A DNA stretch of 52,827 bases from an uncultured Methanobacteriaceae archaeon (lineage in GTDB: Archaea; Methanobacteriota; Methanobacteria; Methanobacteriales; Methanobacteriaceae), in contig CAYUFT010000002.1 in assembly GCA_964444115.1 (NCBI GenBank), positions 1-52,827 of the forward strand, written 5' to 3'. Both the position numbers and the translations under genes were made by a program. Shown piece after piece: positions 31,801-50,912 of the stretch (the stretch's first letter is position 1; each line of letters begins with the position of its first letter). The notes below the pieces were generated by a model, which was not told the DNA's origin, made no database searches, and saw only the letters and a list, made by a program, of their open reading frames with translations.

Positions 31801-31911
31801 TGCATTAATGGCCTCTTTTTGATGTATTACTGGTTCAAGTACTGATTTCTGTTTACGGCAATCATCAAGATCATATTTTTTATAAAAACCTTCTTTTTCT
31901 ATTAGTGACAT
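28840..31911 (-). CDS. SF2 (ResIII-type) helicase fused to an HNH endonuclease and an unassigned C-terminal domain
   Basis: LALPTGSGKT, VFDEAHHAA, LLGLTATP, TQMIGRALRG. HNH: CQCCGEDNVNFLEIDHIKPRYYVHDNSADNLQLLCKTCNGLKR (about 29672-29800). The C-terminal 170 aa or so (28840 to about 29330) are beta-rich with no recognised motif. Confidence 0.85.
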   Translation of the reverse strand: MSLIEKEGFYKKYDLDDCRKQKSVLEPVIHQKEAINAMANWFNQRPENAGGILALPTGSGKTVTAVRFLCQYPLSQGYKVLWLAHTHHLLEQAFFTFGPKYEKSDKGYEVGYISEPREELKVRVVSGAQNFYPPKQIKEDDDVIIATLQTIRGAYEKEQPHFMNFLDSASDKLFVVFDEAHHAAAPSFRRLIENLRKRHPDMYLLGLTATPTAATENKKMWLRKLFPQSNISQTTLDKLMADKILSKPIFKNINTEIKADFNQGEFQKWINTYKDLPQKIIKHLAKNEKRNRIIAQNYVDNKEEYGKTIIFTDRWYQCTTLCKFLRNRGVNADVMFTKVDKSLGTAGTAQKNLEVLENFKNGNLDVLINIKMLTEGTDVPDAETVFLTRQTTSQILLTQMIGRALRGPEFKGTETANIVSFVDDWEYEINWAEWDPLPGDEPEDDSTDSPPKIPLELISIKLVIDWASERDKDGEIVPDCNFTSLMPSGWYLTEFDIINEDKDPESVKDFVLVFEEENQAPERDYYEKFITHLKNENLEIFEDENLEFDLNKDSNVNKSLEKWFDKFFSFTYSENKVKDVLRNLFKISRHMAQNDKDSPKYFNFEDRQKHDLDSIAKTYAMNDLGPKSLNDACESEYEKEDRYWKALYPEFRKFKSEVDYRIFRYLNPPKTFLTHKPWINDDQDPDREPLPEDLRKFIFKRDNFVCQCCGEDNVNFLEIDHIKPRYYVHDNSADNLQLLCKTCNGLKRTETIDFRTSETPLKKSPTKFPALTELNRLDETQVTDHQWWEKFLRRKINFFYKCGAAHSTNIYQNDKFLDSWEITFDGDPNWISQFLLEFTQYIRQYREEYGLSGPKELIIPSALDYIYNEDVVIVPAKFAIDEYFDHSVYMCPPDRSFRNVEYLGFYANGKVSKYVPKILGVVDNFVLSPDLIHNSKLLSDEKKEALLNLVKSLEEKDDQERLYYASKVFFLSPPDSNETIKLENDIINDKKDSSGRKTAFAQGTRYIPIEKFKNNPKTTSQLE

Positions 31912-32050: not shown

Positions 32051-32242
32051 ATGACGGGGGATGAACAGTTTGCAAATATTCTTCTCAAAGAAGTTTTTGA
32101 AGATTTTATAAAAGAATTAGAAAACGATACAGAGTTTCCAAAATATGTTATCAACAATTTAAAGAAATTTAAAACTTATGATTTAACATCAAAAGAAACC
32201 ATGTTAAAATCTTTAAAAAGAGAGGATTCTAATGAAGATTAA
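32051..32242 (+). CDS. Small acidic protein (63 aa) overlapping the start of the ABC ATPase gene
   Basis: ATG preceded by AGGTG. 11-nt overlap with the 32232 gene. No motif. Confidence 0.4.
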   Translation: MTGDEQFANILLKEVFEDFIKELENDTEFPKYVINNLKKFKTYDLTSKETMLKSLKREDSNED

Positions 32243-34701: not shown

Positions 34702-36258
34702 ATGGCAGTGAATAACAGCGAGATAGAAAACAAATTATGGAAAGCAGCCGATCAACTGAGAGCAAACTCAAAATTAACAGCCTCTGAATACTCAATTCCA
34801 GTTTTAGGACTAATTTTTTTACGTTATGCTGATTCTAAATTTACTTTGGCAAAAGAAAAGATAGAAAGCGAATTTAAAAATAAGAATAGTCGGATGGGAA
34901 TCAAGAAAGAACACTATCAATCAAAAGGTGTTCTATATCTCCCTGAAGAATCACGTTTTTCAAATCTTCTAGAACTGCCTGAAGACCAAAATATAGGAAG
35001 GGCAGTAAATGATGCCATGAAGGCCATTGAAGCTGAAAATGATGAATTAAAAGACGTATTACCCAAAACTTACAACCGATTAGAAAATGATGTATTGATT
35101 TCATTATTAAAAAACTTCTCTAACATATCAATTGATCTTGAAGGAGATGTTTTTGGGAAAATTTACGAATATTTCTTAGGTAAATTCGCAATGGCTGAAG
35201 GCCAACGGGGAGGAGAATTTTTTACTCCTACATCTTTAGTTAAATTGATAGTAGCGATAATCAAACCATTCCATGGCCGTATTTATGATCCTGCATGTGG
35301 TTCTGGAGGTATGTTTGTCCAGAGTGCTCATTTTGTAGAAGAGCATAAAAAAAATCCTACCAAAGAAATAGCAATTTATGGGCAGGAAAAAACTGCAGCC
35401 ACTATAAGATTATGTAAGATGAATCTTGCCGTGCATGGTTTATCCGGAGATATAAGACAAGGAAACACGTATTATGAAGATATACACAACTCTTTTGGTA
35501 AATTCGACTTTGTAATGGCCAATCCACCATTTAATGTGAGTGGGGTCGATAAAGAAAAGGTTAAAGACGATAAAAGATTTTCTTATGGTATTCCTCGTGC
35601 TGACAATGGAAACTATCTCTGGATTGAAGCTTTTGCCAATGCACTTAATCCAAAAGGGCGTGCCGGATTTGTCATGGCCAATTCTGCTGGTGACGCTGGA
35701 CAGTCTGAACTTGAAATTCGTAAAAAGTTAATCGAAGAAGGAATTGTAGATGTAATGGTTTCAGTAGGGCCTAATTTCTTTTATACTGTAACTTTACCTT
35801 GCAGCCTATGGTTTTTAGATAAAAACAAAAAAGGAACTCCTACTGAAAATAAAGTTCTTTTCATAGATGCTCGTGAAACTTATAGGCAAATTGACCGTGC
35901 ACATCGCGATTTTAAACCAGAACAAATTGAATTTTTAGCAAATATTGCTAGACTCTATCGTGGAGAAGAAATCGAGAATTTACATAATAGTAAATCGTTA
36001 GTTAATGAAACTTTTCCCGAAGGAGAATATAAAAATGTTTTAGGTCTTTGTAAATTAGTAAATTTTGATGAAATCATTGAAAATGGATATTCACTGAATC
36101 CTGGCCGTTATGTTGGTGTTGCTGAAATGGAAGAAGATGAATTTGATTTTAATGAGCGTTTGCATGAAATAAATAATGAGTTTCAACATTTGAATAAAAA
36201 AGCCCATGAATTAGAGAAAACAATTACAGAAAATTTATCTTCTTTATTGGAGAAATAG
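34702..36258 (+). CDS. hsdM: Type I restriction-modification system, methyltransferase subunit
   Basis: HsdM N-terminal helix bundle (LWKAADQLR), FFTP, motif [13 protein letters not shown], motif [11 protein letters not shown]. Confidence 0.95.
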
Positions 36259-36259
36259 C

Positions 36260-37561
36260 ATGCTTAAATTTCATAAATTAGATAATGTGACAAATTTCCT
36301 CGGTAGGGGTGTTCAGCCAGCCTATGATGAAAATGGAATTATTGTTTTTAATCAAAGGTGCATTAGGAATAATATTGTAAGTTTAAAGGAATCTCGAATT
36401 ACTAATCCTGAAAAAAGAAAAATTTCTAAAGAAAAATTTCTTCAAAAATATGATGTTTTAGTTAATTCAACGGGTGTAGGCACTCTAGGACGTGTTGGGC
36501 AGATTAAAGATATAAATTACGCCGCTACTGTGGATTCTCATGTAACCATTGTGAGACCGAATTTAAGTTGTTTTAATGGATTATTTTTTGGATATGCAAT
36601 GGTGTATTCCCAACCAAAAATAGAAGCTATGGGAGAAGGTACTACTGGTCAGACAGAACTTTCTAGAAAACGTTTAGGTTCTCAAATTAAAGTTCCTATC
36701 CCTAATTTAGAAATTCAAAATAAAATTGCTGAAATTCTTACAGCATATGATAATCTTATTGAAAACAATAATAATAGGATTCAAATATTATCTAAATTAA
36801 CAGAAATTATTTTTAGAGAATGGTTTATAAAATACAGATTCCCAAGTAAAGAAAAATTCGAAATGATTGAATCAAAAGTAGGATTAATACCTCAAAATTG
36901 GGAAATTAAGCCTTTGAGAGAGCTAATTTCTTATTACATTGGTGGTGGATGGGGAAAAGAATATCATGAATCTGATTTTCCTGATGAAGCATATGTAATT
37001 AGAGGTACTGACATACCCCAAGTTTCAGTTGGAAATTTAAAATCGTGTCCACATCGATTCCATAAAGCTTCAAATTTAAAATCAAGAAAAATTAAATCAA
37101 CGGATATTGTATTTGAGGTTTCTGGAGGAAGCAAAGGTCAACCCGTAGGTAGAAATATTCTCATTACAGAAGAAGTTGTTAATAGGCTGAGTAATATTAT
37201 GTGTGCGAGTTTTTGTAAATTGATTAGGCCTAATAATGAATTAATTAGCCCATTCTTTTTAGATCAATTCTTTAAATATATTTATAAATCTGGTGAAATT
37301 TTAACTTATCAAACACAATCAACGGGAATTTCAAATTTCAAATTTGAATATTTCTTAGATAAAGTTATGATCGCTGTTCCTCCTAAAGAGTTATCAATTG
37401 AATTTACAAATATTATATCTCCGATTTATGAATTGATAGCTAAATTAGGCCATAAAAACGAAATTTTACTTCAAAAAAGAGATTTAATCCTTCCCAAACT
37501 TATTTCAGGCCAAATAGATATCACAGATTTAGATATTATCACAGAGGAGATAGAATCATGA
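36260..37561 (+). CDS. hsdS: Type I restriction-modification system, specificity subunit (two TRDs)
   Basis: Two variable halves, each followed by a conserved helix (ILTAYDNLIENNNNRIQILSKLTEIIFREWF and LLQKRDLILPKLISGQIDI). 1-nt gap from hsdM and 4-nt overlap with hsdR. Confidence 0.9.
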   Translation: MLKFHKLDNVTNFLGRGVQPAYDENGIIVFNQRCIRNNIVSLKESRITNPEKRKISKEKFLQKYDVLVNSTGVGTLGRVGQIKDINYAATVDSHVTIVRPNLSCFNGLFFGYAMVYSQPKIEAMGEGTTGQTELSRKRLGSQIKVPIPNLEIQNKIAEILTAYDNLIENNNNRIQILSKLTEIIFREWFIKYRFPSKEKFEMIESKVGLIPQNWEIKPLRELISYYIGGGWGKEYHESDFPDEAYVIRGTDIPQVSVGNLKSCPHRFHKASNLKSRKIKSTDIVFEVSGGSKGQPVGRNILITEEVVNRLSNIMCASFCKLIRPNNELISPFFLDQFFKYIYKSGEILTYQTQSTGISNFKFEYFLDKVMIAVPPKELSIEFTNIISPIYELIAKLGHKNEILLQKRDLILPKLISGQIDITDLDIITEEIES

Positions 37562-40500
37562 CTCCAGGTTCATATTCTGAAGATGCATTGATTGAACAAC
37601 CAGCCATTGAATTGTTCAAGTCTTTAGGCTATGAACATAAAAATGGTTTTCATGAGACATTAGGTGAAAATGGAACTTTTAGTAGAGAAACTCAATCAGA
37701 AGTTGTTCTTAAAAAGCGATTAAAAGATTCTCTAATTCGTTTAAACCCTGGAATACCAGATCATATCATTGATCTTGCAATTGAAGACATCAGTAGAGAT
37801 AGGAGTATTCTAAATCCTACTGTGGCCAATCATGAAATTTATAAAATGATTCGAGATGGGATTAAAGTAAGTGTCAATTTTGATGAGGAATATGAAGAAA
37901 TTGAAACTCTAAAGATAATTGATTTTGATAACCCAAATAATAACGACTTTTTTTTGGCTTCACAGTTCTGGATCACTGGAGATATTGAGAAAAGAAGAGC
38001 AGATTTAGTAGGTTTTGTTAATGGCCTACCCCTTATTTTTATTGAACTAAAAGCAGCACATCGGAAAGTTAGTGATGCATTTACACATAATTTATCAGAT
38101 TATAAAGATACTATTCCCCAATTATTCTGGTATAACACTTTTATTATATTATCAAATGGTTCTCAAAGCAAAATTGGAACCATATCTGCTAAATTAGAAC
38201 ATTTTAGTGATTGGAAAAGAATTTCTAGTGAAGGAGAAAAAGGAATAATTTCTTTAGACACGATTATAAGAGGAACTTGTCAAAAAGAAAGATTTTTAGA
38301 TTTATTAGAAAACTTCACATTATTTAATGACGGTGGAACTCTGATTAAGATTCTAGGAAGAAACCACCAATATTTAGGAGTTAATAATGCCATTGAATCT
38401 TTTGAAAAGATTAAAGAAAACCAGGGAAAATTAGGGGTTTTCTGGCATACTCAGGGGAGCGGGAAAAGTTATTCCATGATTTTCTTTTCACAGAAAATTT
38501 TAAGGAAATTCCCTGGAAATTACACTTTTTTAATTGTTACTGATAGAAAAGAGTTAGATGATCAGATTTATAAAAATTTTGCCAATGCTGGTGCAGTAAT
38601 TGAGGATGAAGTACATGCAAAAAGCGGCGCCCATTTACAAGAGCTCTTAAGAGAAAACCATCGCAATATTTTCACACTTATCCATAAATTTCAAACAGAT
38701 GAAGGTGAAATCTATCCTGTTTTATCGGAACGTTCAGATATCATTGTTATTACTGACGAAGCACATCGTTCTCAGTACTCTACACTGGCCATGAACATGC
38801 GAACTGCACTTCCTAATGCTGCTTTTATTGCGTTTACCGGAACTCCTTTAATGGCGGGAGAAGAACTTACTAAAAATACCTTTGGGGATTATGTTAGCAT
38901 ATACAACTTCCGACAGTCTATTGAAGATCAGGCAACGGTTCCTTTATACTATGAGAACCGTATCCCAGAAGTTCAACTCAAAAATAAGGATCTTAACTCA
39001 GATATGGAGCGTATTATTGAAGATGCGCTGCTTGATGAGGACCAGCTGCAAAAACTTGAGCGAGAATTTGCCAGAGAATATCACTTAATAACTCGCAATG
39101 ATCGGCTCGAAAAAGTTGCAGAAGATATTGTCGATCATTTTATAGGCCGTGGCTATGATGGAAAAGCCATGGTAGTGTCCATTGATAAACCAACTGCAGT
39201 TAAAATGTACAATAAAGTTCAAGAATACTGGAAACATCATATTATTGAACTCCAAGATGAAATTAATCTTATTGATGATCCATCCCATAGAAAAGAGCTT
39301 GAAAATAAGCTTAATTTTATGATGGAAACTGATATGGCCGTTGTGGTAAGTGGTGGTCAAAATGAATTTGAAAAGTTCAAGCGCCTTAATTTAGACATAA
39401 AATCCCATCGTAAGAGAATGCAAAGTGAAGATTTAGCTTCCATGTTCAAAGATGCTGATAACCCTTTCAGAATTGTTTTTGTATGTGCTATGTGGATGAC
39501 TGGTTTTGATGTTCCTTCACTTTCAACCATTTACTTAGATAAACCAATGCGTAACCATACACTAATGCAGACTATCGCAAGAGCAAATAGGGTCTTTGAA
39601 GATAAGCCAAATGGTTTAATTGTTGATTACATTGGAGTATTTAGAGATTTGAAGAGAGCTTTGGCAATATATGGAGCTCCTGGAGAAGAATCAGAGGATA
39701 TTCCTGTAAAACCAAAATCAGAACTCATCGAAGAACTTAAAGAAGCATTAGATGAGATTGAAAGTTTTTGTAAAGAAAAAGAAATTAATACAATAGATAT
39801 TATATCTACAACAGGTTTTGAGAAAGTTAAACTCCTTGAAGATGCTGTAGATTCAATTTTAGTTAATGAAGATTCTAAAAAGAAATATTTTACCTTAGAA
39901 AGTGCTGTAAAAAACTTATTTAAAGCAATATTGCCTGATCGTGATGCTGGAATATTTAACGAAAAGGTTACATTATTTAGAATAATTTCCGAAAAAATTA
40001 GATCTTTAGATCCTGATGTTGATATATCCGAAGTAATGGACGACGTTGAGAAATTACTCGATGATTCGATTGAAAGCGAAGGATATATGATAAAAGCTAA
40101 AGGAAAAGGGATAGATTTAAGTAAAATCGACTTTGATGCTTTAAGAAAACACTTCGAAACAGGTAGAAAACATACAAAAGCAGAAAAGCTCAAAAATGAT
40201 GTTCAAAGAAAGGTTAAAGAGATGGTAACTCTTAATCAAACCAGAATAGATTTCATGGAAAAATTTGAAAAGATAATAAACGATTATAATTCTGGATCTG
40301 CCAACGTAGAAGCATTTTTTGAAGAATTGATGGAATTTGCAAAGGAGTTGAATAAAGAAGATATAAGGGGCATTTCTGAAAATCTTACTGAAGAAGAATT
40401 AGTAATCTTTGATTTGATTTACAAAGATGATCTAAAAGAAAAAGAAAAGAAAAAAGTTAAAAATACAGCTAAGTATCTTCTTAAAGTTCTAAAAAACGAA

Positions 40501-40701
40501 AAATTAGTTATTGACTGGAGAAAAAAACAGCAGTCAAGAGCTGATGTGTTATTTACTATTGAAAGCATTTTAGATGAATGTTTACCAAGAAGTTACTCTC
40601 CAGAAATATACGAAGAAAAATGTAATTTTGTTTATCAGCATATTTATGATTCATATTATGGGGTTGGGGAAAGCCTATATTCCAAAATGGGAATTGCTTG
40701 A
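37558..40701 (+). CDS. hsdR: Type I restriction enzyme, endonuclease/translocase subunit
   Basis: N-terminal nuclease region (RADLVGFVNGLPLIFIELKA), WHTQGSGKS, VITDEAHRSQ, FTGTP, QTIARANR. Confidence 0.95.
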   Translation: MTPGSYSEDALIEQPAIELFKSLGYEHKNGFHETLGENGTFSRETQSEVVLKKRLKDSLIRLNPGIPDHIIDLAIEDISRDRSILNPTVANHEIYKMIRDGIKVSVNFDEEYEEIETLKIIDFDNPNNNDFFLASQFWITGDIEKRRADLVGFVNGLPLIFIELKAAHRKVSDAFTHNLSDYKDTIPQLFWYNTFIILSNGSQSKIGTISAKLEHFSDWKRISSEGEKGIISLDTIIRGTCQKERFLDLLENFTLFNDGGTLIKILGRNHQYLGVNNAIESFEKIKENQGKLGVFWHTQGSGKSYSMIFFSQKILRKFPGNYTFLIVTDRKELDDQIYKNFANAGAVIEDEVHAKSGAHLQELLRENHRNIFTLIHKFQTDEGEIYPVLSERSDIIVITDEAHRSQYSTLAMNMRTALPNAAFIAFTGTPLMAGEELTKNTFGDYVSIYNFRQSIEDQATVPLYYENRIPEVQLKNKDLNSDMERIIEDALLDEDQLQKLEREFAREYHLITRNDRLEKVAEDIVDHFIGRGYDGKAMVVSIDKPTAVKMYNKVQEYWKHHIIELQDEINLIDDPSHRKELENKLNFMMETDMAVVVSGGQNEFEKFKRLNLDIKSHRKRMQSEDLASMFKDADNPFRIVFVCAMWMTGFDVPSLSTIYLDKPMRNHTLMQTIARANRVFEDKPNGLIVDYIGVFRDLKRALAIYGAPGEESEDIPVKPKSELIEELKEALDEIESFCKEKEINTIDIISTTGFEKVKLLEDAVDSILVNEDSKKKYFTLESAVKNLFKAILPDRDAGIFNEKVTLFRIISEKIRSLDPDVDISEVMDDVEKLLDDSIESEGYMIKAKGKGIDLSKIDFDALRKHFETGRKHTKAEKLKNDVQRKVKEMVTLNQTRIDFMEKFEKIINDYNSGSANVEAFFEELMEFAKELNKEDIRGISENLTEEELVIFDLIYKDDLKEKEKKKVKNTAKYLLKVLKNEKLVIDWRKKQQSRADVLFTIESILDECLPRSYSPEIYEEKCNFVYQHIYDSYYGVGESLYSKMGIA

Positions 40702-40739: not shown

Positions 40740-42884
40740 ATGAAACTATTTGAAGAATCTGAATTAATTCAGTCATCAATATCTTATTTAAGGAATGAAT
40801 TAGGTTTCAGTTTAATTGATTATGAAGTTCCATTTAATATTGGAAAAACAAAAAATAGGGCAGATATTGTAGTTTATAAAAAGAAAAATAATGAACAAAA
40901 GCCCTATATTTTAGTTGAAGTTAATTCACAAGATAAAATCGGAAAATATGCATGGATTCAAGCTGAAAGCTATGCTAAAAGATTAAAAACTCCTTACTTT
41001 GCTGTTACAAATGGTAATGAATGGCAATGGTTTAAAACTGGGAAAATTGGTGAATCTGATGAAATTAATATTGATCAAATAAATCGTTCTGGAACCACTG
41101 TGGGTAAAATTACTATTAAAGATCAAAAACATTTTTTAAAAGTTTTTGATCATATGAAACAGATTGTATATGAATCTGAAAATTTAAGATCAGATAAAAC
41201 CCTATATGAACTAATAAAAATAATATTTGTTAAGTTGGAATATGATAAAGACATTAATAAAAAAAATTCTTTAATTGGTGAAGACAGAAGTTTAACAGAC
41301 GGAATTAATGATTTTTATCAAATAAAGCTAAAAAAATACCCTAAATTGATTGATTCGAAATTAAACGAAAATTTTTTTAGAATAAACCTTAGTGAAGAAA
41401 CAATTTCTAAATTAATTAGTATTTTAGATCAATTTAAATTTATTGATTCCGATGTTAATGAATGTTTTAATCTTAATCTGCCTACTTTGGGTTATAACTT
41501 CAAAAATGAATTAGGATATTTCTTTATACCTCTTGAATTAAGTAAATTCATTGTTAATTTTATTAATCCAAGTATTGATAATTCAATTTTAAATCCTGCC
41601 TGCAAAAACGGAGCTTTATTAATTGAAACAATTAAAAAAAATTGTGAAGAGTTAAAAAGCTCAGAAAAGCCTGAAAATATTAAAGCTAATATATCTAAAA
41701 AAATTCATGGAATAGAAGATAACCCTGAACTTTACTGGTTTACTTGCATGAATTTAATTCTACATGGATATAGTGCTGATGGAATATCCCTTACAGATAC
41801 CTTAAATTTAGAAGAAAATGATAAATACGATATAATTTTTGTTATGCCCCCATTTGGCCATATAAATCGTTTTAATAATTTTATATCTGATGAAAATTTA
41901 AGAATAAGATATACAGAAGAAGCTTTTTTATTAAAATCTATTAAATTGCTTAAAAATTCAGGCAAAATGAGTATAATATTACCTGATCGAGTTTTGACGA
42001 GTCCTAGTGCTAGACTTTTAAGAAAATATTTAAAAGAAAAAATGAATATTTTATCGATTATTTCTTTACCAAATAACATTTTTATTCATAAAAATATTAA
42101 AACATCCATTTTGTTTCTCGAAAAAAAAGAAGAAGGATTTTCTAAACAAAAAACCGTTTTTATGGTTGATTTCCAATCTAAACATCAATTAAAGGAAAAG
42201 GATTTTAATGAAGTTTTAGAAGATTACATTCTTTTTAAAAAGACAAATTTAAAAAAGGGACGAATAAGTGAGAGTTCTTTCGCAGTGAATGAAGATTTGA
42301 TTATTGAAAATGATGTTTTAAGTACTTCTTATTATAATCCCGAATATTTAGAAATTAAAAATCAATTAAAAAAATTAAAGAATCAAAAAAAATTAAAAGA
42401 TATTGGTGAAATATCCATAGGACAAAGATTTAAAGATAATTTTGAATCATCTGACAGCAGCATACCTCTTATAAAGATTAAAAATATAGTTGATGGAAAA
42501 ATTTCAAAAAAAGATCTAAAATTTATAGAGATAAATAATCCTCGGACGAAATTATGGTCACCTGATACGTTAATAATTTCTCGAATTGGACTAAAAAATA
42601 AAATTGCAATATTACCGCCTGATTTTCCAAAATATACTCTAGATAAAAATTTAATAGGTATAAAACTTGAAAAAAACGTTATACCTGAATATTTGGCTTT
42701 ATTTTTAAATTCGAAATATGGAACGGTGCAGTTAGAATCAATAAAAGTTTCTGGAATAATTCCATATCTTGGTTTATCACATTTAAAGGAGATTATTATA
42801 CCTCTAAACTCAATTAAAGCTCAGAAAAAAATTTTGGAATTAAAAGATGGAAATGAAAATGATTTTTTTATGGAGATTAAATAA
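40740..42884 (+). CDS. Fusion protein: HsdR_N-like PD-(D/E)xK-fold N-domain + HsdM-like domain with degenerate catalytic motifs + a single HsdS-type TRD
   Basis: N-terminus NRADIVVYKK...PYILVEVNSQDK...YFAVTNGNEWQWF. MTase fold FFIPLELSKFIV, IHGIEDNPELYWFTCMNLILHG, SIISLPNNIF...TSILFLEK. Motif I reads ILNPACKNGALL (41592-41612) and motif IV reads FVMPPFG (41844-41855), not DPACGSG and NPPF. The C-terminal 190 aa or so are TRD-like. Confidence 0.8.
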   Translation: MKLFEESELIQSSISYLRNELGFSLIDYEVPFNIGKTKNRADIVVYKKKNNEQKPYILVEVNSQDKIGKYAWIQAESYAKRLKTPYFAVTNGNEWQWFKTGKIGESDEINIDQINRSGTTVGKITIKDQKHFLKVFDHMKQIVYESENLRSDKTLYELIKIIFVKLEYDKDINKKNSLIGEDRSLTDGINDFYQIKLKKYPKLIDSKLNENFFRINLSEETISKLISILDQFKFIDSDVNECFNLNLPTLGYNFKNELGYFFIPLELSKFIVNFINPSIDNSILNPACKNGALLIETIKKNCEELKSSEKPENIKANISKKIHGIEDNPELYWFTCMNLILHGYSADGISLTDTLNLEENDKYDIIFVMPPFGHINRFNNFISDENLRIRYTEEAFLLKSIKLLKNSGKMSIILPDRVLTSPSARLLRKYLKEKMNILSIISLPNNIFIHKNIKTSILFLEKKEEGFSKQKTVFMVDFQSKHQLKEKDFNEVLEDYILFKKTNLKKGRISESSFAVNEDLIIENDVLSTSYYNPEYLEIKNQLKKLKNQKKLKDIGEISIGQRFKDNFESSDSSIPLIKIKNIVDGKISKKDLKFIEINNPRTKLWSPDTLIISRIGLKNKIAILPPDFPKYTLDKNLIGIKLEKNVIPEYLALFLNSKYGTVQLESIKVSGIIPYLGLSHLKEIIIPLNSIKAQKKILELKDGNENDFFMEIK

Positions 42885-43681
42885 TGAAATTTTCATCCTC
42901 CGATATTTTCTGTATTTGTAAAATTATTAATGATTATTTCCCGTTAGAAGTCATTATCGGTGAGTTAACTGAAATTACTAATGATCAGGATTTAGATACA
43001 TTTCCAGAAATTCAGGAAACTATTTATAATTCAACTCAATCATTAAACTCAGATGCTATTAATGAATTAAGCGAATATTTTCATAGTTATCATATTAACT
43101 TTTTTTTGTTTATTAAAAAATTTGTCTCTGAAGAATTTTCAGAAACTTATTTAGAATATTTCCAATCATCAGATTTCTTAAAAAAGTTAAATAAAATTTT
43201 AATTGCCTATGAAATACGTATTAAAAACTATAAAATCCAAAAAAGAGTTTTTTTATTGCAAAATAGCTCTTTAGAGGAAAATTTATTATTTGTAGATATA
43301 ATAACACCAGATCATGTTGTTGATTATTACAAAGAATCATTAATTTGTCTAAATAATGAAACATTTAGATCATCTATTCTTTTTTGTGTTTTTGCTTTTG
43401 AGGCCGGGCTAAAATGTATGTATTATACTGTAGAAAAAAAAATTCCAAACGAACCGCTTCGTAGATTAATAGATTGGGCCAATAATAATAATCTTTTAGA
43501 AAAATTAGATGAAGACTATGATGAAGGCTATGAGGAATTAATTAAATTAAAAGATTATAGGAATATTCTTGTACATTGTAGTCCAAAGGAACGCGAAGAT
43601 ATCTCTTCAGAAATTGCAGGAAACCGAGCAGTAGCTGATTTAAATTTAATTAACCAGTCTTTAAATTCAATATTTGATTAA
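42884..43681 (+). CDS. HEPN-domain protein (predicted RNase)
   Basis: C-terminal four-helix pattern with FAFEAGLKCMYY... and the R-x4-H motif KDYRNILVHCS (43559-43576). Its start shares 1 nt with the stop of the upstream gene (TAATG). Confidence 0.6.
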   Translation: MKFSSSDIFCICKIINDYFPLEVIIGELTEITNDQDLDTFPEIQETIYNSTQSLNSDAINELSEYFHSYHINFFLFIKKFVSEEFSETYLEYFQSSDFLKKLNKILIAYEIRIKNYKIQKRVFLLQNSSLEENLLFVDIITPDHVVDYYKESLICLNNETFRSSILFCVFAFEAGLKCMYYTVEKKIPNEPLRRLIDWANNNNLLEKLDEDYDEGYEELIKLKDYRNILVHCSPKEREDISSEIAGNRAVADLNLINQSLNSIFD

Positions 43682-43694
43682 TAGGGGGGCTTAG

Positions 43695-46600
43695 ATGAAA
43701 TGGACATTTATTATAAATAAAGATTTTTATTCCGAACTAAAATCCAAGAATGAAATAAAATGGAATAGTGCTAAAGAAGTGAAGAAAGGAGACATAATTT
43801 TAATATATACTGGATCTCCTTACAGCAATATTGGTTTCATTTTAAAAGCTATTTCAGACCCTTTTGAAGATTCAGAAATAAGAAAAGCCTGGGATAGACC
43901 AGCAATAATGGTTGAAAAATTACTCGAAATTCCAGAACCTATCGAACTATCTCAACTAAAAGAAAACCCCATATTAAGCAATTGGGGTGCCGTGAGAATG
44001 GGTTTTAGGGGTTCTCATTTCAAAATGTCACAAGAAGAGTGGAAAGAAATAATAAAACTTATTTTAGGGCAAAATCCTGAATTGGAAGTTGAAATTCTAA
44101 ATTTAGAAAACATATTATCAAATGGGACAATTAATCCAGAAACTATACATTATAATGATTTAAGTGCTGGTCGGGCCCATTTAGTTCGTGATTTATGCTA
44201 TTTAATAGAAAAAAATAGTAATTTAAGTGAAAAAAAGCTTTTTGATATCTTAAGGAGAAAAGTAGGAAATAATGATAATTATTGGAAAGCATATTTTTTA
44301 AGATCTAATAAAAATAACAGTCCTCAGTACAGTTTAAATTCAGCAAGAAGTTTAGGGCTGGTTGAAAAAAATTCACTACACCTAACTGAAACAGGAAAAG
44401 AATTAGCAGATTTATCTACATCCAATGAATTATTCACTCATTATTATGGGCTAGAAGTAAAAAAGTTCTTCTTTAAATTGGCTGCTTCTATCCATTCTAT
44501 AAAAACAGCTATGCAAATTTTAAAGGAAAAAAGAGAATTGCGTTTTTATTCTCCAACCTGTAAAGAAATTGATAAAGTGACTTGGGACTGGAAGATCGAA
44601 AATGGAAAAGTAATTTGTGAATCTGACAAATATAACAAATGTAAATTATGTGATAACGATTTTATGACTCATATGAAAGAATCATCACTACCCCTTGAAA
44701 CTATGCAAAAAACTAATGGGGAAGGATACGGATTTGTATTCTGGATGTGCAGTCGTATCACTCCAATGCATTTGAAAGGTTCAGATCCAGTTTATTCTGG
44801 AAATTATATTTATTGGGATGATGATGCTGAAAAAGAGCTTGGGCATCTAATTAAAATATTAGATGAAAATAAAAATTCATCCCCCAAAGTATGGAAAATA
44901 TCTCCAGGTAACTTTGAAAAAAGAAAAAAATTATGGCCAATCCTTGTTGAAAAAGGTTATATTGGAGTAGGATGGTTTGGTTGTGAATCTTTTATCAAGA
45001 AATCATTTTCTCAATTTAAATCACTAGATAGTTTAAAAGAAGAACTTCAAAAATGCTCCAAAAAGAAAGCAGTTATAAAAAATGCAGACATGATATGGAA
45101 TTTTGGAAAAGAAATTAAAATTGGAGATTATGTTGTAGCTAACAATGGCCTTAAAGGAATATGGGGCATAGGAATAATAAAAAGTGATTATATACCTCCA
45201 GATGAATCAATTAAGTTGAAGATTGATGAAGATAATGAATATTTCCATTTCAGAAAAGTTGAATGGTTAATAACCGCTCCTATTGAAATGAAAGAAGATT
45301 ATTTTTTTGTACAACAAACTATTAAAAAAATAGATTCCGAGAAATGGAAAAAAATTAAGTCATCTTATATTAAAATAAACCCTGAATATGAACGTATTTT
45401 CAGAGAAATGGAAAATAAGTCGAAAAGTGGGGACATTGAACAAGAAATTAAATTAATTAAAAAGTTATATGCTGAATTCAATAAAGATTATTTTTCAAAA
45501 CCAATAGGCATAGAACATGCTGAGGGCTATGAAAAAGAAAGACAAGAAGTTCTTAAATATTACAACAAAATTAAAGATAATCCTGAAATTTTTAATGATA
45601 CCAATAACCCAATAATTAACTACCTCTTGCCAATAAAACGTTTTTCAGTTGCTCCTACCGGATTCAATGATATTAAAGCTGTTCGAAGAAGAGAAGATAA
45701 TCTGCCTGAATTTTCAGAGTCTGTTTATAATCTAATTATTGATTTAATCAACAAAAATGATTCTAATGAACAGAAAGAGGTAATTAATACATTTAAAACA
45801 GGAGATGGGAAGGGAATACAGTCTGCAGTTTTATCATCAGTTCTTTATTTCTTAAACCCAACTTATCTATATATTAACACAAAGACTGTAAAAACTTTTA
45901 GAATATTATCTGAACTTTTAGGTCATGACAAATATATCAATGGGAATTTAATCGACTATATTGATAATTTAAAAAGATTGAAAGAATTGAAAAATGAAAT
46001 TTCTGCAATTATACCCGAATTTAAAGATTTTGAGGTTTTTGATGCCTTCTGTAACTGGATGTGTGATGCAAATCTAGGTGCTTATGCAGTTAATGGTATA
46101 AAACTCGAAATTTTAAAAAAGAATTATGATTTAAACATCAAAAATTCATTTGAAATCCTTTTAGAAAATTACAACAAAGCTAAAGTAGATAAAGTTTCAC
46201 CTGCTGAAAAAATCTTAGTAAGAGACCTATTATCAACTACAATCCCTGAAAAGTTATCTGAAATAAATCAGGGCCAATATAAAATATTCAGTAGCGCTTG
46301 GGATAAATGGCATTATTGTCCCTATGTGGCCTTGATGAATGAAAAAATCACATCTAAACATATAACTGGATATTATGTTAATTACATGTTTAGAGAAGAT
46401 ATGAGTGGCATTTATCTGGCCTTAAGGCAAGGTGTGCCAGAATTTGATAAAAGAAAGCTGGCTAAAAATTCAGAAGAATATAGAAGTAAAATAAGATCTC
46501 AAAAAGAAGTTACTGAATTTTCAGAAGAAATTGACCTAAAATCCTCTCAGGGCCAATTTGGAAAGTTTTATGAATCTGCAAATATCTACTCCAAATTTTA

Positions 46601-47831
46601 TCCAAAAGAGAACATCCCTTCTGAGGAAGAATTAATCTCTGATCTTGAAAAAATGCTAAAACTTTATGATGATTTAAGTGAATTAACTTCTATTCAATTT
46701 AATTCATTCAATGACTTTTTAAAAGATAAGAACTTCTTATACACTCCAGAAATGTTGGAGAATTACTTACTTTCATTGAAGGTCAAACCATTTGTCATAT
46801 TAACGGGTAACTCCGGTACTGGTAAGACAAAAATAGCACAGCTTTTTGCAGAATACTTAGAACAAAAAGATGTAGGTGAATCAGTAATAATACCCGTGGG
46901 TGCTAACTGGACTGAAAATAGACATCTAATGGGATTCTTTAATGTGATAACCAGTGACTACCAGTCAACCCCAGCCCTAGATCTAATAATAAAGGCCTCA
47001 AATGACAATAGTAAACCTTATTTTTTAATCCTGGATGAAATGAATCTTTCTCATGTGGAACGTTATTTCTCTGACTTTTTATCGGCCATGGAAAGTGGTA
47101 AAGAAATATCCCTATATTCCAAGGATAATGCTAAAGTTATTAAGAACAAACTAATCCCTGAAAAACTGGAAATTCCAGATAACTTATTTGTTATTGGAAC
47201 CGTTAATGTGGATGAAACAACCTTTAGGTTATTTCCTAAGGTTCTGGATAGGGCCAATACTATTGAATTTAAAACATATCCTGCTAGGGACTACATAATG
47301 TGTGAAATTGAACATGAATCTCCCAAAGGAGATATTAATTATTTAGAGAATCCCATATCTGATTTTAAAATGAGAAAATGTAAAATAAACAATTTAAAAG
47401 ATAAATTAACTCACGTGAAAGTCAATGACAATAATAACCTCTGGGAAGAGTTGGCCTTAGAGATTCATTCATTCCAAGATGTTTTATCCACAGCAGGCTT
47501 TGATTTTGGATTCCGAGTTATTGATGAGATAATGAGATTCATGTATACTGCCTGGCTTTATGAAGATTCACCCGATGAATGGAATAACTGGGAGCGTTAT
47601 TTTGATGCTCAAATTATGCAAAAAATGCTTCCTAAAATTCATGGCTCTCAAAGAGAGCTTGAAACTATTTTAGAAGAACTTTTCAAAAAATGCTACCGAA
47701 GTAATTTTGAAGAATTGTGGTATTCAATTAATTTAGAAGGAAATGACATTATTTATGCATCAAGTGCTAAAAAGCTTCAAAGAATGGGTAAAACTCTTCA
47801 GGAAAAACGATTTGTATCATTTACGGATTAG
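43695..47831 (+). CDS. mcrB: McrB-like AAA+ GTPase with an N-terminal EVE/PUA-like domain, a second PUA-like domain and a DUF3578 (MrcB_N)-like domain
   Basis: EVE-like aa 1-125 (KGDIILIYTG...IGFILKAISDP...LSQLKENPIL...FKMSQEEWKEI). Second PUA-like domain about 44885-45300 (KVWKISPGN...GYIGVGW...IKIGDYVVA...GIGIIKSDY...FRKVEWL). DUF3578-like about 46250-46435 (WHYCPYVALMNEKITSKHITGYYVNYMFREDMSGIYLALRQG). AAA+ region: VILTGNSGTGKTK (46806-46829), FLILDEMNLSHVERYFSDFLSAME, FVIGTVNVDETT, LDRANTIEF. Confidence 0.85.
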   Translation: MKWTFIINKDFYSELKSKNEIKWNSAKEVKKGDIILIYTGSPYSNIGFILKAISDPFEDSEIRKAWDRPAIMVEKLLEIPEPIELSQLKENPILSNWGAVRMGFRGSHFKMSQEEWKEIIKLILGQNPELEVEILNLENILSNGTINPETIHYNDLSAGRAHLVRDLCYLIEKNSNLSEKKLFDILRRKVGNNDNYWKAYFLRSNKNNSPQYSLNSARSLGLVEKNSLHLTETGKELADLSTSNELFTHYYGLEVKKFFFKLAASIHSIKTAMQILKEKRELRFYSPTCKEIDKVTWDWKIENGKVICESDKYNKCKLCDNDFMTHMKESSLPLETMQKTNGEGYGFVFWMCSRITPMHLKGSDPVYSGNYIYWDDDAEKELGHLIKILDENKNSSPKVWKISPGNFEKRKKLWPILVEKGYIGVGWFGCESFIKKSFSQFKSLDSLKEELQKCSKKKAVIKNADMIWNFGKEIKIGDYVVANNGLKGIWGIGIIKSDYIPPDESIKLKIDEDNEYFHFRKVEWLITAPIEMKEDYFFVQQTIKKIDSEKWKKIKSSYIKINPEYERIFREMENKSKSGDIEQEIKLIKKLYAEFNKDYFSKPIGIEHAEGYEKERQEVLKYYNKIKDNPEIFNDTNNPIINYLLPIKRFSVAPTGFNDIKAVRRREDNLPEFSESVYNLIIDLINKNDSNEQKEVINTFKTGDGKGIQSAVLSSVLYFLNPTYLYINTKTVKTFRILSELLGHDKYINGNLIDYIDNLKRLKELKNEISAIIPEFKDFEVFDAFCNWMCDANLGAYAVNGIKLEILKKNYDLNIKNSFEILLENYNKAKVDKVSPAEKILVRDLLSTTIPEKLSEINQGQYKIFSSAWDKWHYCPYVALMNEKITSKHITGYYVNYMFREDMSGIYLALRQGVPEFDKRKLAKNSEEYRSKIRSQKEVTEFSEEIDLKSSQGQFGKFYESANIYSKFYPKENIPSEEELISDLEKMLKLYDDLSELTSIQFNSFNDFLKDKNFLYTPEMLENYLLSLKVKPFVILTGNSGTGKTKIAQLFAEYLEQKDVGESVIIPVGANWTENRHLMGFFNVITSDYQSTPALDLIIKASNDNSKPYFLILDEMNLSHVERYFSDFLSAMESGKEISLYSKDNAKVIKNKLIPEKLEIPDNLFVIGTVNVDETTFRLFPKVLDRANTIEFKTYPARDYIMCEIEHESPKGDINYLENPISDFKMRKCKINNLKDKLTHVKVNDNNNLWEELALEIHSFQDVLSTAGFDFGFRVIDEIMRFMYTAWLYEDSPDEWNNWERYFDAQIMQKMLPKIHGSQRELETILEELFKKCYRSNFEELWYSINLEGNDIIYASSAKKLQRMGKTLQEKRFVSFTD

Positions 47832-47836
47832 GTATA

Positions 47837-49624
47837 ATGATTACCCAAGAAATTAAAATCAGTTTCCAAGATGCATATGGGAATAATCTAGGAACACTGA
47901 TTATTACTTACTCTAACAAACACATTGAAGAGTATGAAACCTTCTCGAAAATGATTAATGGCAATTATATTGAATTTAAAAATGTTCCTCGAGTTTTTAA
48001 AACAAATCAGAATACAGCCATAGCATTTAATGAAAATAAATGTGTGCATGAGAGCATATTGCTACTGGAAGAAACGGAATATCAGCTTTTTTTCACTCCT
48101 GCGAATATTAATATTGAAAATATTTCATTTCCCACACTGGAAAAAAAAGACAAAACCCCGGTTTTCAAGAAATTAAATATTAATAGGGCTGATATTTACA
48201 GCGGAATTCTTAATTTCAAAGCATATGCTGGTAAATCATTTTTTGATGTTCAAATTGATAAAAACGTCTCTTTAAAATGTCCCTTCGAAGTTCGATCTAA
48301 AAAAATAGATTATATTAATCACTACTCCTCCATGATTAGTGATCTTTCACAAGCCGATTCTTCAATTATTCTTTATGATAAATCTCCGGTTCACAGTTTA
48401 CTAAACTTTGAAGAAAGGGTAAAAAAGAGTTTTTATGAAGATTTCATGTTTTTAGAATATATTTTCCGCCCTGAGAATCTTCCAACTTCTTATGGGCATA
48501 TAAGAAGAGACCCTCATAGAATACTAATTAAATATACTGAAACAGTCCCTATATCATTAGCATCATCTGTAGGGCCTTCCAGTTTAATTGATATAGTGGC
48601 TTGTCCTGAAAACCTGACTAAAACAGATGAAGTTCCTTTTAACTGGCCAGCTGAAATGAAGAACCTGGTTCCTCAGAAAGTCGCTAAAGAGAGTTATATT
48701 GATAATCTGGATACTCCTGAAAACAGATTTATTAAGTATTTTTTAACTTTATTATTTGAATTAATCAGTGAAATGAATTTATATATTGAAAAGGAAGGTA
48801 TTAATGGATATCCTGCTGAGAAGATAATAGAATATCAAGAAATTATTCAGGAATATGTTATGGATGAATGGGTAGATGAAGTAGGTAAACTGGATCATTT
48901 CCCATCAAATTCTCAAGTTCTACAAAAAAAAGAAGGATATCGAGAAATTTTTGACTATTTCCTAATATTCGAGTTCAGCTTTAATTTCCAGTTCGAAGAA
49001 GTAAAAGAAGAAATTAAAGGATATCAAAAAAAGCTCAGTGAACTTTATGAATACTGGTGCTATCTTAAACTTATTAAAATTATGAGTAAATTATCCAGAG
49101 TTAAAGTTAATTATTCCTCTATTTTCGATTTAAATAGAAAAAAATGGTCTATTAAGGTTAAAAGAGGGGAAGAATCATCTCAAAAATTTATAATCCCCTT
49201 AAATGATATGGATTTGGAAGTAGAATTAGAGTTTAACAGAGAATTTAAAAAATATGAATTAAATTACAATCCATATCCCTTAAAATATAGGCCAGATTAT
49301 ACAATTATAGTGAAAACAAGTTATTATAAAGTATTTTTACATTTCGATGCTAAATATAAACTAAACAAAGAAACTTTTAAAAATGAGGATATTTTTAAAA
49401 TGCATACATATAAAGATGCCATTAAATATTCATCAGGGGCTTATGTATTATATCCCGGTCTGAAAGAAGGAATATATTATGAAAACGAAAAAACTGTGGC
49501 ATCTGTAGGAGCATTCCCTCTTAAACCCGGAAAATTAGATATTGAAGATGAAAATAAGATAGAAACATTTTTAATTAAATTTTTAAACTTAATTTCAGAA
49601 GAATCAGAGGACAATATTAAATAA
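47837..49624 (+). CDS. mcrC: McrC-like protein (DUF2357-type N-region + PD-(D/E)xK nuclease, DUF524-like)
   Basis: 5-nt gap after the McrB-like gene. C-terminal nuclease motif YRPDYTIIVK...FLHFDAKYK (DAK at 49346-49354) ...HTYKDAI. Confidence 0.8.
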   Translation: MITQEIKISFQDAYGNNLGTLIITYSNKHIEEYETFSKMINGNYIEFKNVPRVFKTNQNTAIAFNENKCVHESILLLEETEYQLFFTPANINIENISFPTLEKKDKTPVFKKLNINRADIYSGILNFKAYAGKSFFDVQIDKNVSLKCPFEVRSKKIDYINHYSSMISDLSQADSSIILYDKSPVHSLLNFEERVKKSFYEDFMFLEYIFRPENLPTSYGHIRRDPHRILIKYTETVPISLASSVGPSSLIDIVACPENLTKTDEVPFNWPAEMKNLVPQKVAKESYIDNLDTPENRFIKYFLTLLFELISEMNLYIEKEGINGYPAEKIIEYQEIIQEYVMDEWVDEVGKLDHFPSNSQVLQKKEGYREIFDYFLIFEFSFNFQFEEVKEEIKGYQKKLSELYEYWCYLKLIKIMSKLSRVKVNYSSIFDLNRKKWSIKVKRGEESSQKFIIPLNDMDLEVELEFNREFKKYELNYNPYPLKYRPDYTIIVKTSYYKVFLHFDAKYKLNKETFKNEDIFKMHTYKDAIKYSSGAYVLYPGLKEGIYYENEKTVASVGAFPLKPGKLDIEDENKIETFLIKFLNLISEESEDNIK

Positions 49625-49661: not shown

Positions 49662-50912
49662 CTATTCAAATATTTCTAGTTCATCATCAAAATTGTCCCA
49701 TTCTAGATTGTCAAATAAGTCAATTATTTTTTCACTGGAGTCGAATTTATCTGGATTTTGTTGAACTATATCCAGCGCACTGACTACTCCCCGAACATAA
49801 TCTCGGGGCTGTACTGAACCGGTAAGAATCGATTTTTCTTTGTAGAAATCAATGATACTCACAATTAAACTATCATCAAATTTATCTGTGATTTCATTCC
49901 CATATACTGAAGAATACAATACTAGGATTTTTCTAGTTAATGTGTCCAGATCTTCATTAGTAAATCCTTCCAACTTCATAATAGGCTTTCTAAAATCTTT
50001 ATATTCAGATTCTATAGCATCTTTAATTCTCTGATGCAAGGCTGGATAGGAGGGAACCCCTTTTTCTGGATTTTCAAAAAATTCATCAGTACCGGCCATT
50101 ACAAACAGGGTCTTTTCAAAATTACCTAAATTGCACTCATCATACAAATATCTAACATAATCCAGAGCCGTGGATCGGATATTCTTATTGGCCAGCATTA
50201 TAATAAATTCAATCTCATCAATCAATATAACAAGACCATTGTAACCTATAGATGAAATAAAAGCAGACAAGGCCTTTAAAAAGTCAAATACATTTTCCTT
50301 AGAAACTCCGCCCTTAACTCCAAATTGTCTTTTCACGGTGAAAGGAATATTATCATCACATCTTAGCCAGGCCTGGGCATAGTTAGCAATTTCATCATCA
50401 CCATTTACCGAAGCCTCATAGTAACTTTCAATAGCTGTAACAAAGGAATTAGAATAATTTCGGGCACTCTGCAAATCAATGTGGATATTATCCATCACAA
50501 TATGATTTTGCTGTAAAGGGTCTTCCGTTTCATCCATAGCCGCGATTTTAAGTTCATTTATCCATCTTTCAATGATATGCTGCAGTGAAACTCCAGTTTT
50601 ACATTTTAAAGTGCTTACAATTTTTCTATAAACTTCTTCAAATTTATTAAAGGGAACATCACGAGTAATAGTTATCTTAGAGACTACAAAATTATTTTCC
50701 AGTGCATTTTCCTCAATCATTTTCAGTAAGAATGATTTTCCAGTCCCAAATTTTCCTTCCACAAATTTTGCGGAACCTTTTCCTTGTTTAATGTTTTCCA
50801 GTATATTTTGAAATTCTAAAATTTCTGAATCCCGTCCCACCGAAATTTCAAAAGTACCCTCTGGAGGAACATTTCCATCCTTTAGTGCCCTTATTATATC
50901 TTCATTTTCCAT
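49662..50912 (-). CDS. P-loop ATPase (DUF2791/BrxD-like by pattern)
   Basis: Walker A VEGKFGTGKSFLLK, Walker B GLVILIDEIEF. 9-nt gap after the upstream co-oriented gene. The family name is from memory of the motif layout and has not been searched. Confidence 0.65.
   Translation of the reverse strand: MENEDIIRALKDGNVPPEGTFEISVGRDSEILEFQNILENIKQGKGSAKFVEGKFGTGKSFLLKMIEENALENNFVVSKITITRDVPFNKFEEVYRKIVSTLKCKTGVSLQHIIERWINELKIAAMDETEDPLQQNHIVMDNIHIDLQSARNYSNSFVTAIESYYEASVNGDDEIANYAQAWLRCDDNIPFTVKRQFGVKGGVSKENVFDFLKALSAFISSIGYNGLVILIDEIEFIIMLANKNIRSTALDYVRYLYDECNLGNFEKTLFVMAGTDEFFENPEKGVPSYPALHQRIKDAIESEYKDFRKPIMKLEGFTNEDLDTLTRKILVLYSSVYGNEITDKFDDSLIVSIIDFYKEKSILTGSVQPRDYVRGVVSALDIVQQNPDKFDSSEKIIDLFDNLEWDNFDDELEIFE

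Follow-up and report, generated by a model that had tools for sequence, protein, structure and literature searches.

In a stretch of 52,827 nucleotides (nt) from an uncultured Methanobacteriaceae archaeon (contig CAYUFT010000002.1 of assembly GCA_964444115.1), here called the window, positions 43695-49624 probably encode a McrBC-like system of Type IV that depends on modification and whose head is mosaic and multi-reader. Among restriction enzymes of this dependence McrBC is the textbook example, and to our knowledge each characterised McrBC homologue has a single specificity domain. The McrB homologue described here, P0001, has a head of about 1000 amino acids (aa) in front of its motor. This head combines three reader-type domains (an EVE domain, a DUF8426 barrel and an MrcB_N domain) with one likely binding module, all of them conserved and independently portable. 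The system is a variant of a known phage-defence enzyme and not a new system type.

The open reading frame (ORF) of P0001 is intact and runs for 4137 nt without interruption in the ORF list and its translation, and a G-rich stretch resembling a ribosome-binding site lies 5′ of its ATG. Six modules, A to F, were delimited in the protein (Table 1). A preliminary description of this DNA had read the 1378-aa product as a McrB homologue, and the open frame, the match of the core to solved McrB structures and the adjacent McrC homologue all bear this out. The motifs it had listed (GNSGTGKT, DEMNLS, GTVNVDE and GYYVNYMFREDMSGIYLALRQG) were located in P0001, the last of them at aa 892-913. Four elements had been counted before the GTPase core; five modules were found there, the helical module D having been overlooked.

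The motor, module F, was recognised by Pfam as AAA_5 (aa 1034-1186, E 3e-5), and both the Walker A (GxxGxGK[ST]) and the Walker B pattern (hhhhDE; FLILDEMN, aa 1110-1117) are present in this AAA_5-type core. Compared with solved AAA+ domains, the C-terminal 374 aa matched McrB of E. coli (6hz4, E 5e-7) and of T. gammatolerans (6ut3, E 1.6e-6); phmmer also matched the motor to 6ut6, and PADLOC identified it as PDC-M26A (E 2.4e-52). In the HMMER alignment, IGTVNVDETT of P0001 stands opposite IGLMNTADRS of E. coli, with the Asn kept and the Asp placed one residue earlier and followed by Glu. The Nx(x)D signature is present as its NxD(E) variant and not in the canonical NxxD form. The signature places the motor in the NxD clade that Bell et al. 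2024 defined, outside the canonical NxxD motors.

The partner gene begins 5 nt past the McrB stop codon. Its product, P0048, contains DUF2357 (aa 123-375, 9.3e-46) and PDDEXK_7 (aa 402-543, 5e-27) according to Pfam, and the PD...DxK catalytic motif (RPDY...FDAKYK) is intact, so that an adjacent McrC with DUF2357 and a PD-(D/E)xK nuclease is in place. No PADLOC model matched P0048. Two NxD-type relatives of P0001, P0011 and P0033, are also followed by a partner with DUF2357 and PDDEXK_7.

Two of the head modules belong to established families. The EVE-like domain reported at aa 1-125 was recovered by Pfam at aa 18-122 (PF01878, E 5.5e-10), with 39.8 bits against a gathering cut-off of 23 and with profile positions 20-145 of 145 covered; a weak sequence match to the PDB entry 1zce (Atu2648) was also found for this module. 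The DUF3578/MrcB_N-like domain was matched over nearly the whole profile (PF12102, aa 823-995, E 8.5e-32, 110.7 bits against a cut-off of 25, profile positions 3-182 of 183). MrcB_N/DUF3578 is the family of the 5-methylcytosine (5mC)-binding domain of E. coli McrB, a domain that binds 5mC in DNA (PMC11090510). Profile and structure searches could have revealed N-terminal regions with neither PUA/EVE nor DUF3578 folds, which did not occur.

Module C carries the precomputed Pfam label PF28530 (DUF8426, a family of unknown function), and its aa 398-528 matched the N-terminal 120 residues of the PDC-S02 models of PADLOC (E 2.2e-10). Its structure was predicted with AlphaFold2 (AF2) in a model spanning modules B, C and D (aa 130-820) and based on an alignment of 30 relatives, with a mean predicted local distance difference test score (pLDDT) of 84.2. 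The relatives were checked locally beforehand to avoid the alignment of cassettes that are not homologous. When the 691-aa query was aligned by MAFFT with single-module fragments, those of module D were misplaced (11-18% identity); this alignment was discarded, and whole relatives were used. In the model, the order of elements in module C is beta-alpha-beta-alpha(alpha)-beta-beta-(alpha)-beta-beta-alpha, which fits the expected PUA-like pattern. The best 15 Foldseek matches of the model in the PDB were all YTH domains (YTHDF2, YTHDC1, YTHDF1) or ASCH domains, with probabilities of 0.69-1.00 and TM-scores on the target of 0.5-0.58 (best E 0.02), and in the BFVD an EVE-domain protein matched the module C part with a probability of 0.90. 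As modelled, module C is a PUA-like barrel at the level of fold. The second PUA-like domain previously suggested at about 44885-45300 therefore holds as a fold at aa 396-560, and does not hold as a profile relative of EVE. "PUA-like" is a statement on the fold only, because profile comparison gives no link to the EVE copy. No match was obtained with the module C profile among PDB sequences, a Pfam scan of 18 module C members found EVE weakly in one (E 0.007), and profile homology to a named PUA-like family was not found. The invariant aromatic residues of the module (W400, W414, W468, F470, Y499 and W524) would fit a base-binding cage.

The model of modules B-C-D also matched an uncharacterised protein of 336 aa from Myoviridae sp. 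ctEBR14 in the BFVD (A0A8S5NVT7; E 8.8e-6, 26% identity over 200 columns). The matched region is taken to be the DUF8426 part, and this protein is possibly a virus-encoded copy of the reader fold.

Module B had been described as a Cys-containing helical region. The cysteines are present, and the AF2 prediction for the module alone (pLDDT 90.6, predicted template modelling score 0.88) is not merely helical: an N-terminal GRAHxVRD helix is followed by a winged-helix unit, a Cys ribbon and a terminal beta-sheet. Four invariant cysteines (C289, C308, C316 and C319) lie in the ribbon, the final strand reads FWMCSRxTPMHL with the invariant segment FWxxSRxTPMxL in the beta-sheet, and 41 columns are invariant in an alignment of 20 sequences. 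Foldseek found no PDB match to module B with E < 1 (the best was FokI, E 1.0, probability 0.23), and neither a Pfam scan of members nor a profile search of the PDB gave a match. An identification of the module as an HNH or beta-beta-alpha-Me nuclease was rejected, as neither Foldseek nor Pfam supports it and, in distant relatives, the Cys cluster is dispensable whereas the winged helix-turn-helix core is kept.

A profile search with module B through 1.84 billion representatives retrieved no more than 24 clusters. The strongest matches (E < 1e-30) were mostly McrB-like proteins of the set of relatives described below. More distant matches (E 4e-20 to 1e-4) were proteins of 360-410 aa in which the B-like region forms the C-terminal half. 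In six of these (P0056, P0057, P0059, P0063, P0064 and P0065, at loci L010-L014) the N-terminal half contains an invariant Y, D-V-x-G and Y-x-x-E-x-K, and this D...ExK follows the pattern of PD-(D/E)xK nucleases. The six proteins had no match to any Pfam or PADLOC family and may form an undescribed family of restriction-like nucleases; their genomic contexts (L010-L014) were too short or uninformative. Two distant relatives have no Cys cluster while they retain the winged-helix core, and the zinc ribbon is therefore an insert and not the core of module B. Since the distant relatives carry the PD-(D/E)xK-like motif N-terminally, module B is probably the half by which small restriction-like nucleases bind their targets, here put to use again as a fourth target-binding module in the head of P0001.

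Module D is all helix in the AF2 model, with pLDDT mostly 85-96, and has 6 invariant positions in an alignment of 19 sequences. No match was found by a Pfam scan of its members or by a profile search of the PDB. It may be a connector, because in the relatives it is nearly always placed directly upstream of E-F or F. An origin as an inactivated HhH-GPD glycosylase was rejected: hhalign against 13 archaeal endonuclease III sequences gave a probability of 0.1%, Pfam gave no match, and the HhH-GPD-type Foldseek matches were weak (3knt, probability 0.09; a medusavirus glycosylase, probability 0.13).

With the first 830 aa of P0001 as the query, 45 relatives were found, and those with a name were almost entirely from Methanobacterium or Methanobacteriaceae. 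The modules were mapped by BLAST of the six query segments against these relatives. The cassettes recur in varied orders and copy numbers, such as A-A-B-C-D-F, A-A-E-C-D-E-F, E-C-D-F, A-D-F and B-F. The best relative is a different one for most modules: P0043 for A (77%), P0011 for B (67%) and F (70%), P0027 for C (77%) and P0031-33 for D (63%). One relative with the identical order A-B-C-D-E-F was found, P0002 from another Methanobacterium metagenome-assembled genome, which was not located on any contig. The family is mosaic, because the best relative varies by module and P0002, in spite of its identical order, reaches only 40-67% identity per module. The motors of the 46 proteins (the query and its 45 relatives) were of the NxD type in 22 (GTVN[VI]DE) and of the NxxD type in 23 (MN/LN-x-x-DK/R), and one was untyped. 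Across these relatives, and across the divide between the two deep motor clades (NxD and NxxD), the cassettes are shuffled, as would be expected if specificity were the object of an arms race.

Three or more reader-type modules are present in 26 of the 46 proteins, a fraction that is biased upward as the set was gathered by similarity to the head. All four reader-type kinds occur together only in P0001, P0002 and P0020. The stacking of readers that had been noticed in P0001 does recur, and it is not unique to this protein but the norm in a mosaic family of the Methanobacteriaceae. Among 151 sampled genomes of the family Methanobacteriaceae, a match at E 1e-10 or better was present in 55 (19 of 27 genera); a colinear match to the whole six-module protein was found in none of the 151.

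The genome that harbours P0001 also has a plain NxD-type McrBC pair on contig 8 (loci L002-L004, about 34900-39300, forward strand). Its McrB of 846 aa has MrcB_N only and shares 58% identity in the core, and its McrC of 632 aa shares 43%. Because this plain pair exists in the same genome, the giant McrB is seen as an elaborated paralogue. At another locus (L006, 10001-20497, GCA_013402945.1), an NxxD-type A-A-B-C-D-F McrB of 1247 aa (P0009) is followed by genes for 427 aa and 297 aa, with no Pfam match on record, and then by a plain MrcB_N-McrB and DUF2357-nuclease pair. This locus holds two tandem McrBC-like systems, and the 427-aa gene may encode an unrecognised type of McrC.

By analogy with the enzymes of E. 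coli and T. gammatolerans, the proposed mechanism is as follows: P0001 would assemble as a hexamer through its C-terminal AAA+ GTPase in a GTP-dependent manner, the DUF2357 finger of McrC would insert into the hexamer and stimulate GTP hydrolysis, and the PD-DxK nuclease of McrC would cleave DNA. As in the solved McrBC complexes (PMC7680126), a McrC dimer would bridge two hexamers, and the reader domains would sit on flexible linkers at the hexamer periphery. The choice of target could draw on the N-terminal head of independently folding cassettes, and in each hexamer about 24 binding modules, belonging to four kinds, would be exposed. We infer that the most likely logic is "OR" with avidity, whereby any of several modifications would recruit the motor and the range of viruses restricted would be widened. 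Alternatives to it are AND logic, the reading of RNA and non-reader roles of some modules.

Several observations weigh against the reading of the system as a multi-reader McrBC. In its clade the NxD motif is strictly conserved, with E or D as the usual next residue, and no member of this clade has been characterised (PMC11090510). EVE and YTH domains can read RNA as well as DNA, and RNA readers occur among the EVE, YTH and ASCH folds (PMC7641849). Alignment of module C with the EVE module gave an hhalign probability of 10% over 24 columns and no profile-level link, and the Foldseek E-values for module C, obtained with a three-domain query, were 0.02 or higher. The nuclease call for the small B-containing proteins is drawn from the invariant motif alone, and Pfam, PADLOC and PDB profile searches with their N-terminal half were silent. 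The choice of OR over AND logic is pure inference, and the sampling by head similarity inflates the multi-reader fraction given above.

A more far-reaching proposal is that Methanobacteriaceae possess a cassette system with at least five portable head modules on two motor clades, in which B and perhaps D are undescribed readers and each hexamer combines 4-5 specificities at once. We consider this possible, though on balance rather unlikely; if true, module B and perhaps module D would read modified or virus-specific DNA, and targets would be recognised in a combinatorial manner.

It is improbable, in our judgement, that only one or two of the modules are working readers, the others being relics of accretion, auto-inhibitory elements, an oligomer scaffold or decoys for phage anti-restriction proteins, with a range of targets that is not widened. 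Such an explanation would account for the few invariant residues (6 among 19 sequences) and connector-like behaviour of module D and for the lack of a demonstrated ligand of module B. It would also agree with the presumably functional relatives whose modules number from one to five and stand in any sequence, and with the single-reader paralogue kept in the same genome. However, modules A, B and C hold many invariant residues, including aromatic clusters, across relatives that are 40-70% identical, which argues for purifying selection on each of them. All modules are confidently folded by AF2, and the re-use of the same cassettes on two motor clades is hard to explain as dead weight.

The multi-reader McrBC shares with the Type IV, GTP-dependent EcoKMcrBC of E. 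coli K-12 the AAA+ GTPase core with Walker A and B motifs, a DUF3578/MrcB_N-family domain immediately before the motor, a separate downstream McrC with DUF2357 and PD-DxK, and a location beside a Type I restriction-modification (R-M) system, which is typical (PMC11090510). It differs in the NxD(E) instead of the NxxD signature, in about 820 extra N-terminal residues with four further modules, in its archaeal host, and in an MrcB_N domain that has diverged so far from the N-terminal domain of the E. coli protein that phmmer matches it to no solved structure. With the EVE-McrB and YTH-McrB fusions (PMC7641849), among them T. gammatolerans McrB (PMC7680126), it has in common an N-terminal PUA-like reader on a McrB GTPase. 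EVE-McrB proteins often have additional domains (Bell et al. 2020, PMC7641849), whereas P0001 joins two different PUA-like domains, MrcB_N and two unassigned modules in one chain. The PADLOC entries PDC-M26 (component A) and PDC-S02, whose models are matched by the motor and module C, respectively, are both computational candidates. We found no description of the reader stack, of module B or of a cassette exchange between NxD and NxxD motors in the cited McrB papers (PMC7641849, PMC7680126, PMC11090510).

The NxD-clade McrB proteins, which include the CoCoNuTs (PMC11090510), resemble P0001 in the strict NxD followed by Glu and in the association of methyltransferase-like, Type I R-M and BREX-type genes in one island. 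In contrast to the CoCoNuTs, P0001 has no long coiled-coil on McrB, its N-terminal 1000 aa being made up of the globular modules A-E, and its McrC is neither missing nor inactivated. The upstream ORF encoding P0047, a protein with an Rx4H motif, is not conserved with the pair, and the host is an archaeon while CoCoNuTs are nearly absent from archaea. Because there is no coiled-coil and McrC is intact, the system is not a CoCoNuT and is in keeping with the "rest of the NxD homologs", the non-CoCoNuT members that the 2024 census deferred to later work (PMC11090510).

This comparison bears on a further explanation, in which RNA is read by the head, either alone or alongside DNA, in the manner of the RNA-targeting CoCoNuT relatives, and P0047 is a HEPN RNase that acts as a second, abortive-infection tier. 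The NxD signature is common to this motor and to the CoCoNuTs, for which HEPN RNases are frequent partners (PMC11090510), and the folds of modules A and C are among those with known RNA readers (PMC7641849). P0047 has a single Rx4H motif of the HEPN RNase kind, RNILVH at aa 226-231, and its gene shares 1 nt with the upstream stop codon, while 13 nt separate its end from mcrB. On the other hand, the McrB lacks the coiled-coil fusion and the McrC nuclease is intact, unlike in typical CoCoNuTs, MrcB_N belongs to a DNA 5mC-binding family, and archaea are nearly without CoCoNuTs (PMC11090510). No match for P0047 was found in Pfam, NCBIfam or PADLOC, and no such gene lies beside McrB-McrC in the three relatives inspected. 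We therefore hold this explanation to be quite improbable.

That the long ORF is an artefact of assembly or gene fusion joining neighbouring genes, as might be suspected from a draft genome of 200 contigs and a protein cluster of 2 member sequences on 1 contig, is extremely improbable given the uninterrupted frame of 4137 nt, the colinearity of P0002 over six modules at 40-67% identity per module, and the dozens of relatives in which a single ORF spans three to six modules, in some cases on megabase contigs.

Coordinates of the modules and of the surrounding genes are given in Table 1. The two genes of the McrBC-like pair end a co-directional block of seven genes, namely HsdM, HsdS, HsdR, a methylase-like fusion, P0047, McrB and McrC, with gaps of −4 to 38 nt. 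The methylase-like fusion is probably inactive as a methylase. The upstream genes of the block are not conserved beside McrB-McrC in the relatives inspected. As neither a methylase-like gene nor a P0047-type ORF was found beside McrB-McrC in the three relatives' loci inspected, the two-gene McrBC pair is considered the functional unit. A gene for a BrxC/BrxD-family ATPase is convergent with the McrC gene, and the examined part of the window showed no further BREX genes. By its predicted gene content (Type I R-M, BrxC/D-like ATPase, helicase-HNH and SMC-like ATPase), the neighbourhood is a defence island. A gene similar to that of the SMC-like ATPase is located directly upstream of a McrB relative in Methanobacterium movens (L008).

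Table 1. Positions in the window of the McrB-family gene with its modules and motifs, of the McrC gene and of neighbouring genes (TRD, target recognition domain).
Feature	Position (nt)	Strand	Residues (aa)	Basis or remark
DEAD helicase + MZB (DUF1998) + TPR protein	25746-28550	-		Pfam/PADLOC
Helicase-HNH fusion	28840-31911	-		Pfam/PADLOC
SMC/AAA_23-type ATPase	32232-34604	+		Pfam/PADLOC
HsdM	34702-36258	+		Pfam/PADLOC; motif IV NPPF
HsdS	36260-37561	+		Pfam/PADLOC
HsdR	37558-40701	+		Pfam/PADLOC
HSDR_N_2 + N6_Mtase + TRD fusion	40740-42884	+	714 aa in all	Motif IV MPPF, not NPPF
P0047, Rx4H motif protein	42884-43681	+	265 aa in all; RNILVH 226-231	Motif only
McrB-family protein P0001, whole gene	43695..47831	+	1378 aa in all	Order A-B-C-D-E-F
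Module A, EVE domain (PUA-like modified-base reader)	43695..44078	+	1-128	Pfam PF01878
Module B, GRAHxVRD motif + winged helix + C4 zinc ribbon + beta	44142..44870	+	150-392	Alignment, AF2
Module C, DUF8426, second PUA-like beta-barrel (YTH/ASCH/EVE-like)	44880..45374	+	396-560	Pfam PF28530, Foldseek
Module D, all-helical (230 aa)	45417..46109	+	575-805	AF2, position in relatives
Module E, MrcB_N/DUF3578 ("ADAM")	46152..46688	+	820-998	Pfam PF12102
Module F, McrB-type AAA+ GTPase core	46707..47828	+	1005-1378	AAA_5, PADLOC, phmmer
Walker A of module F	46806-46829	+	1038-1045	GNSGTGKT
Walker B of module F	47034-47051	+	1114-1119	DEMNLS
NxD signature of module F	47196-47216	+	1168-1174	GTVNVDE
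McrC homologue P0048	47837..49624	+	595 aa in all	DUF2357 + PDDEXK_7
BrxC/BrxD-family ATPase	49662-50912	-	416 aa in all	PF10923, E 3e-95; convergent with McrC gene

With three recognisable readers and one unassigned fold of DNA-binding type on a single motor, P0001 offers a natural test of OR logic, AND logic and avidity, and the P0001/P0048 pair is a tractable way into the McrB GTPases of the NxD clade. A function would be assigned for the first time to module B and to DUF8426, and the isolated domains could serve as affinity reagents for modified bases. The mosaic family of the Methanobacteriaceae illustrates a way in which defence genes of archaea may become diverse, through the swapping of cassettes.

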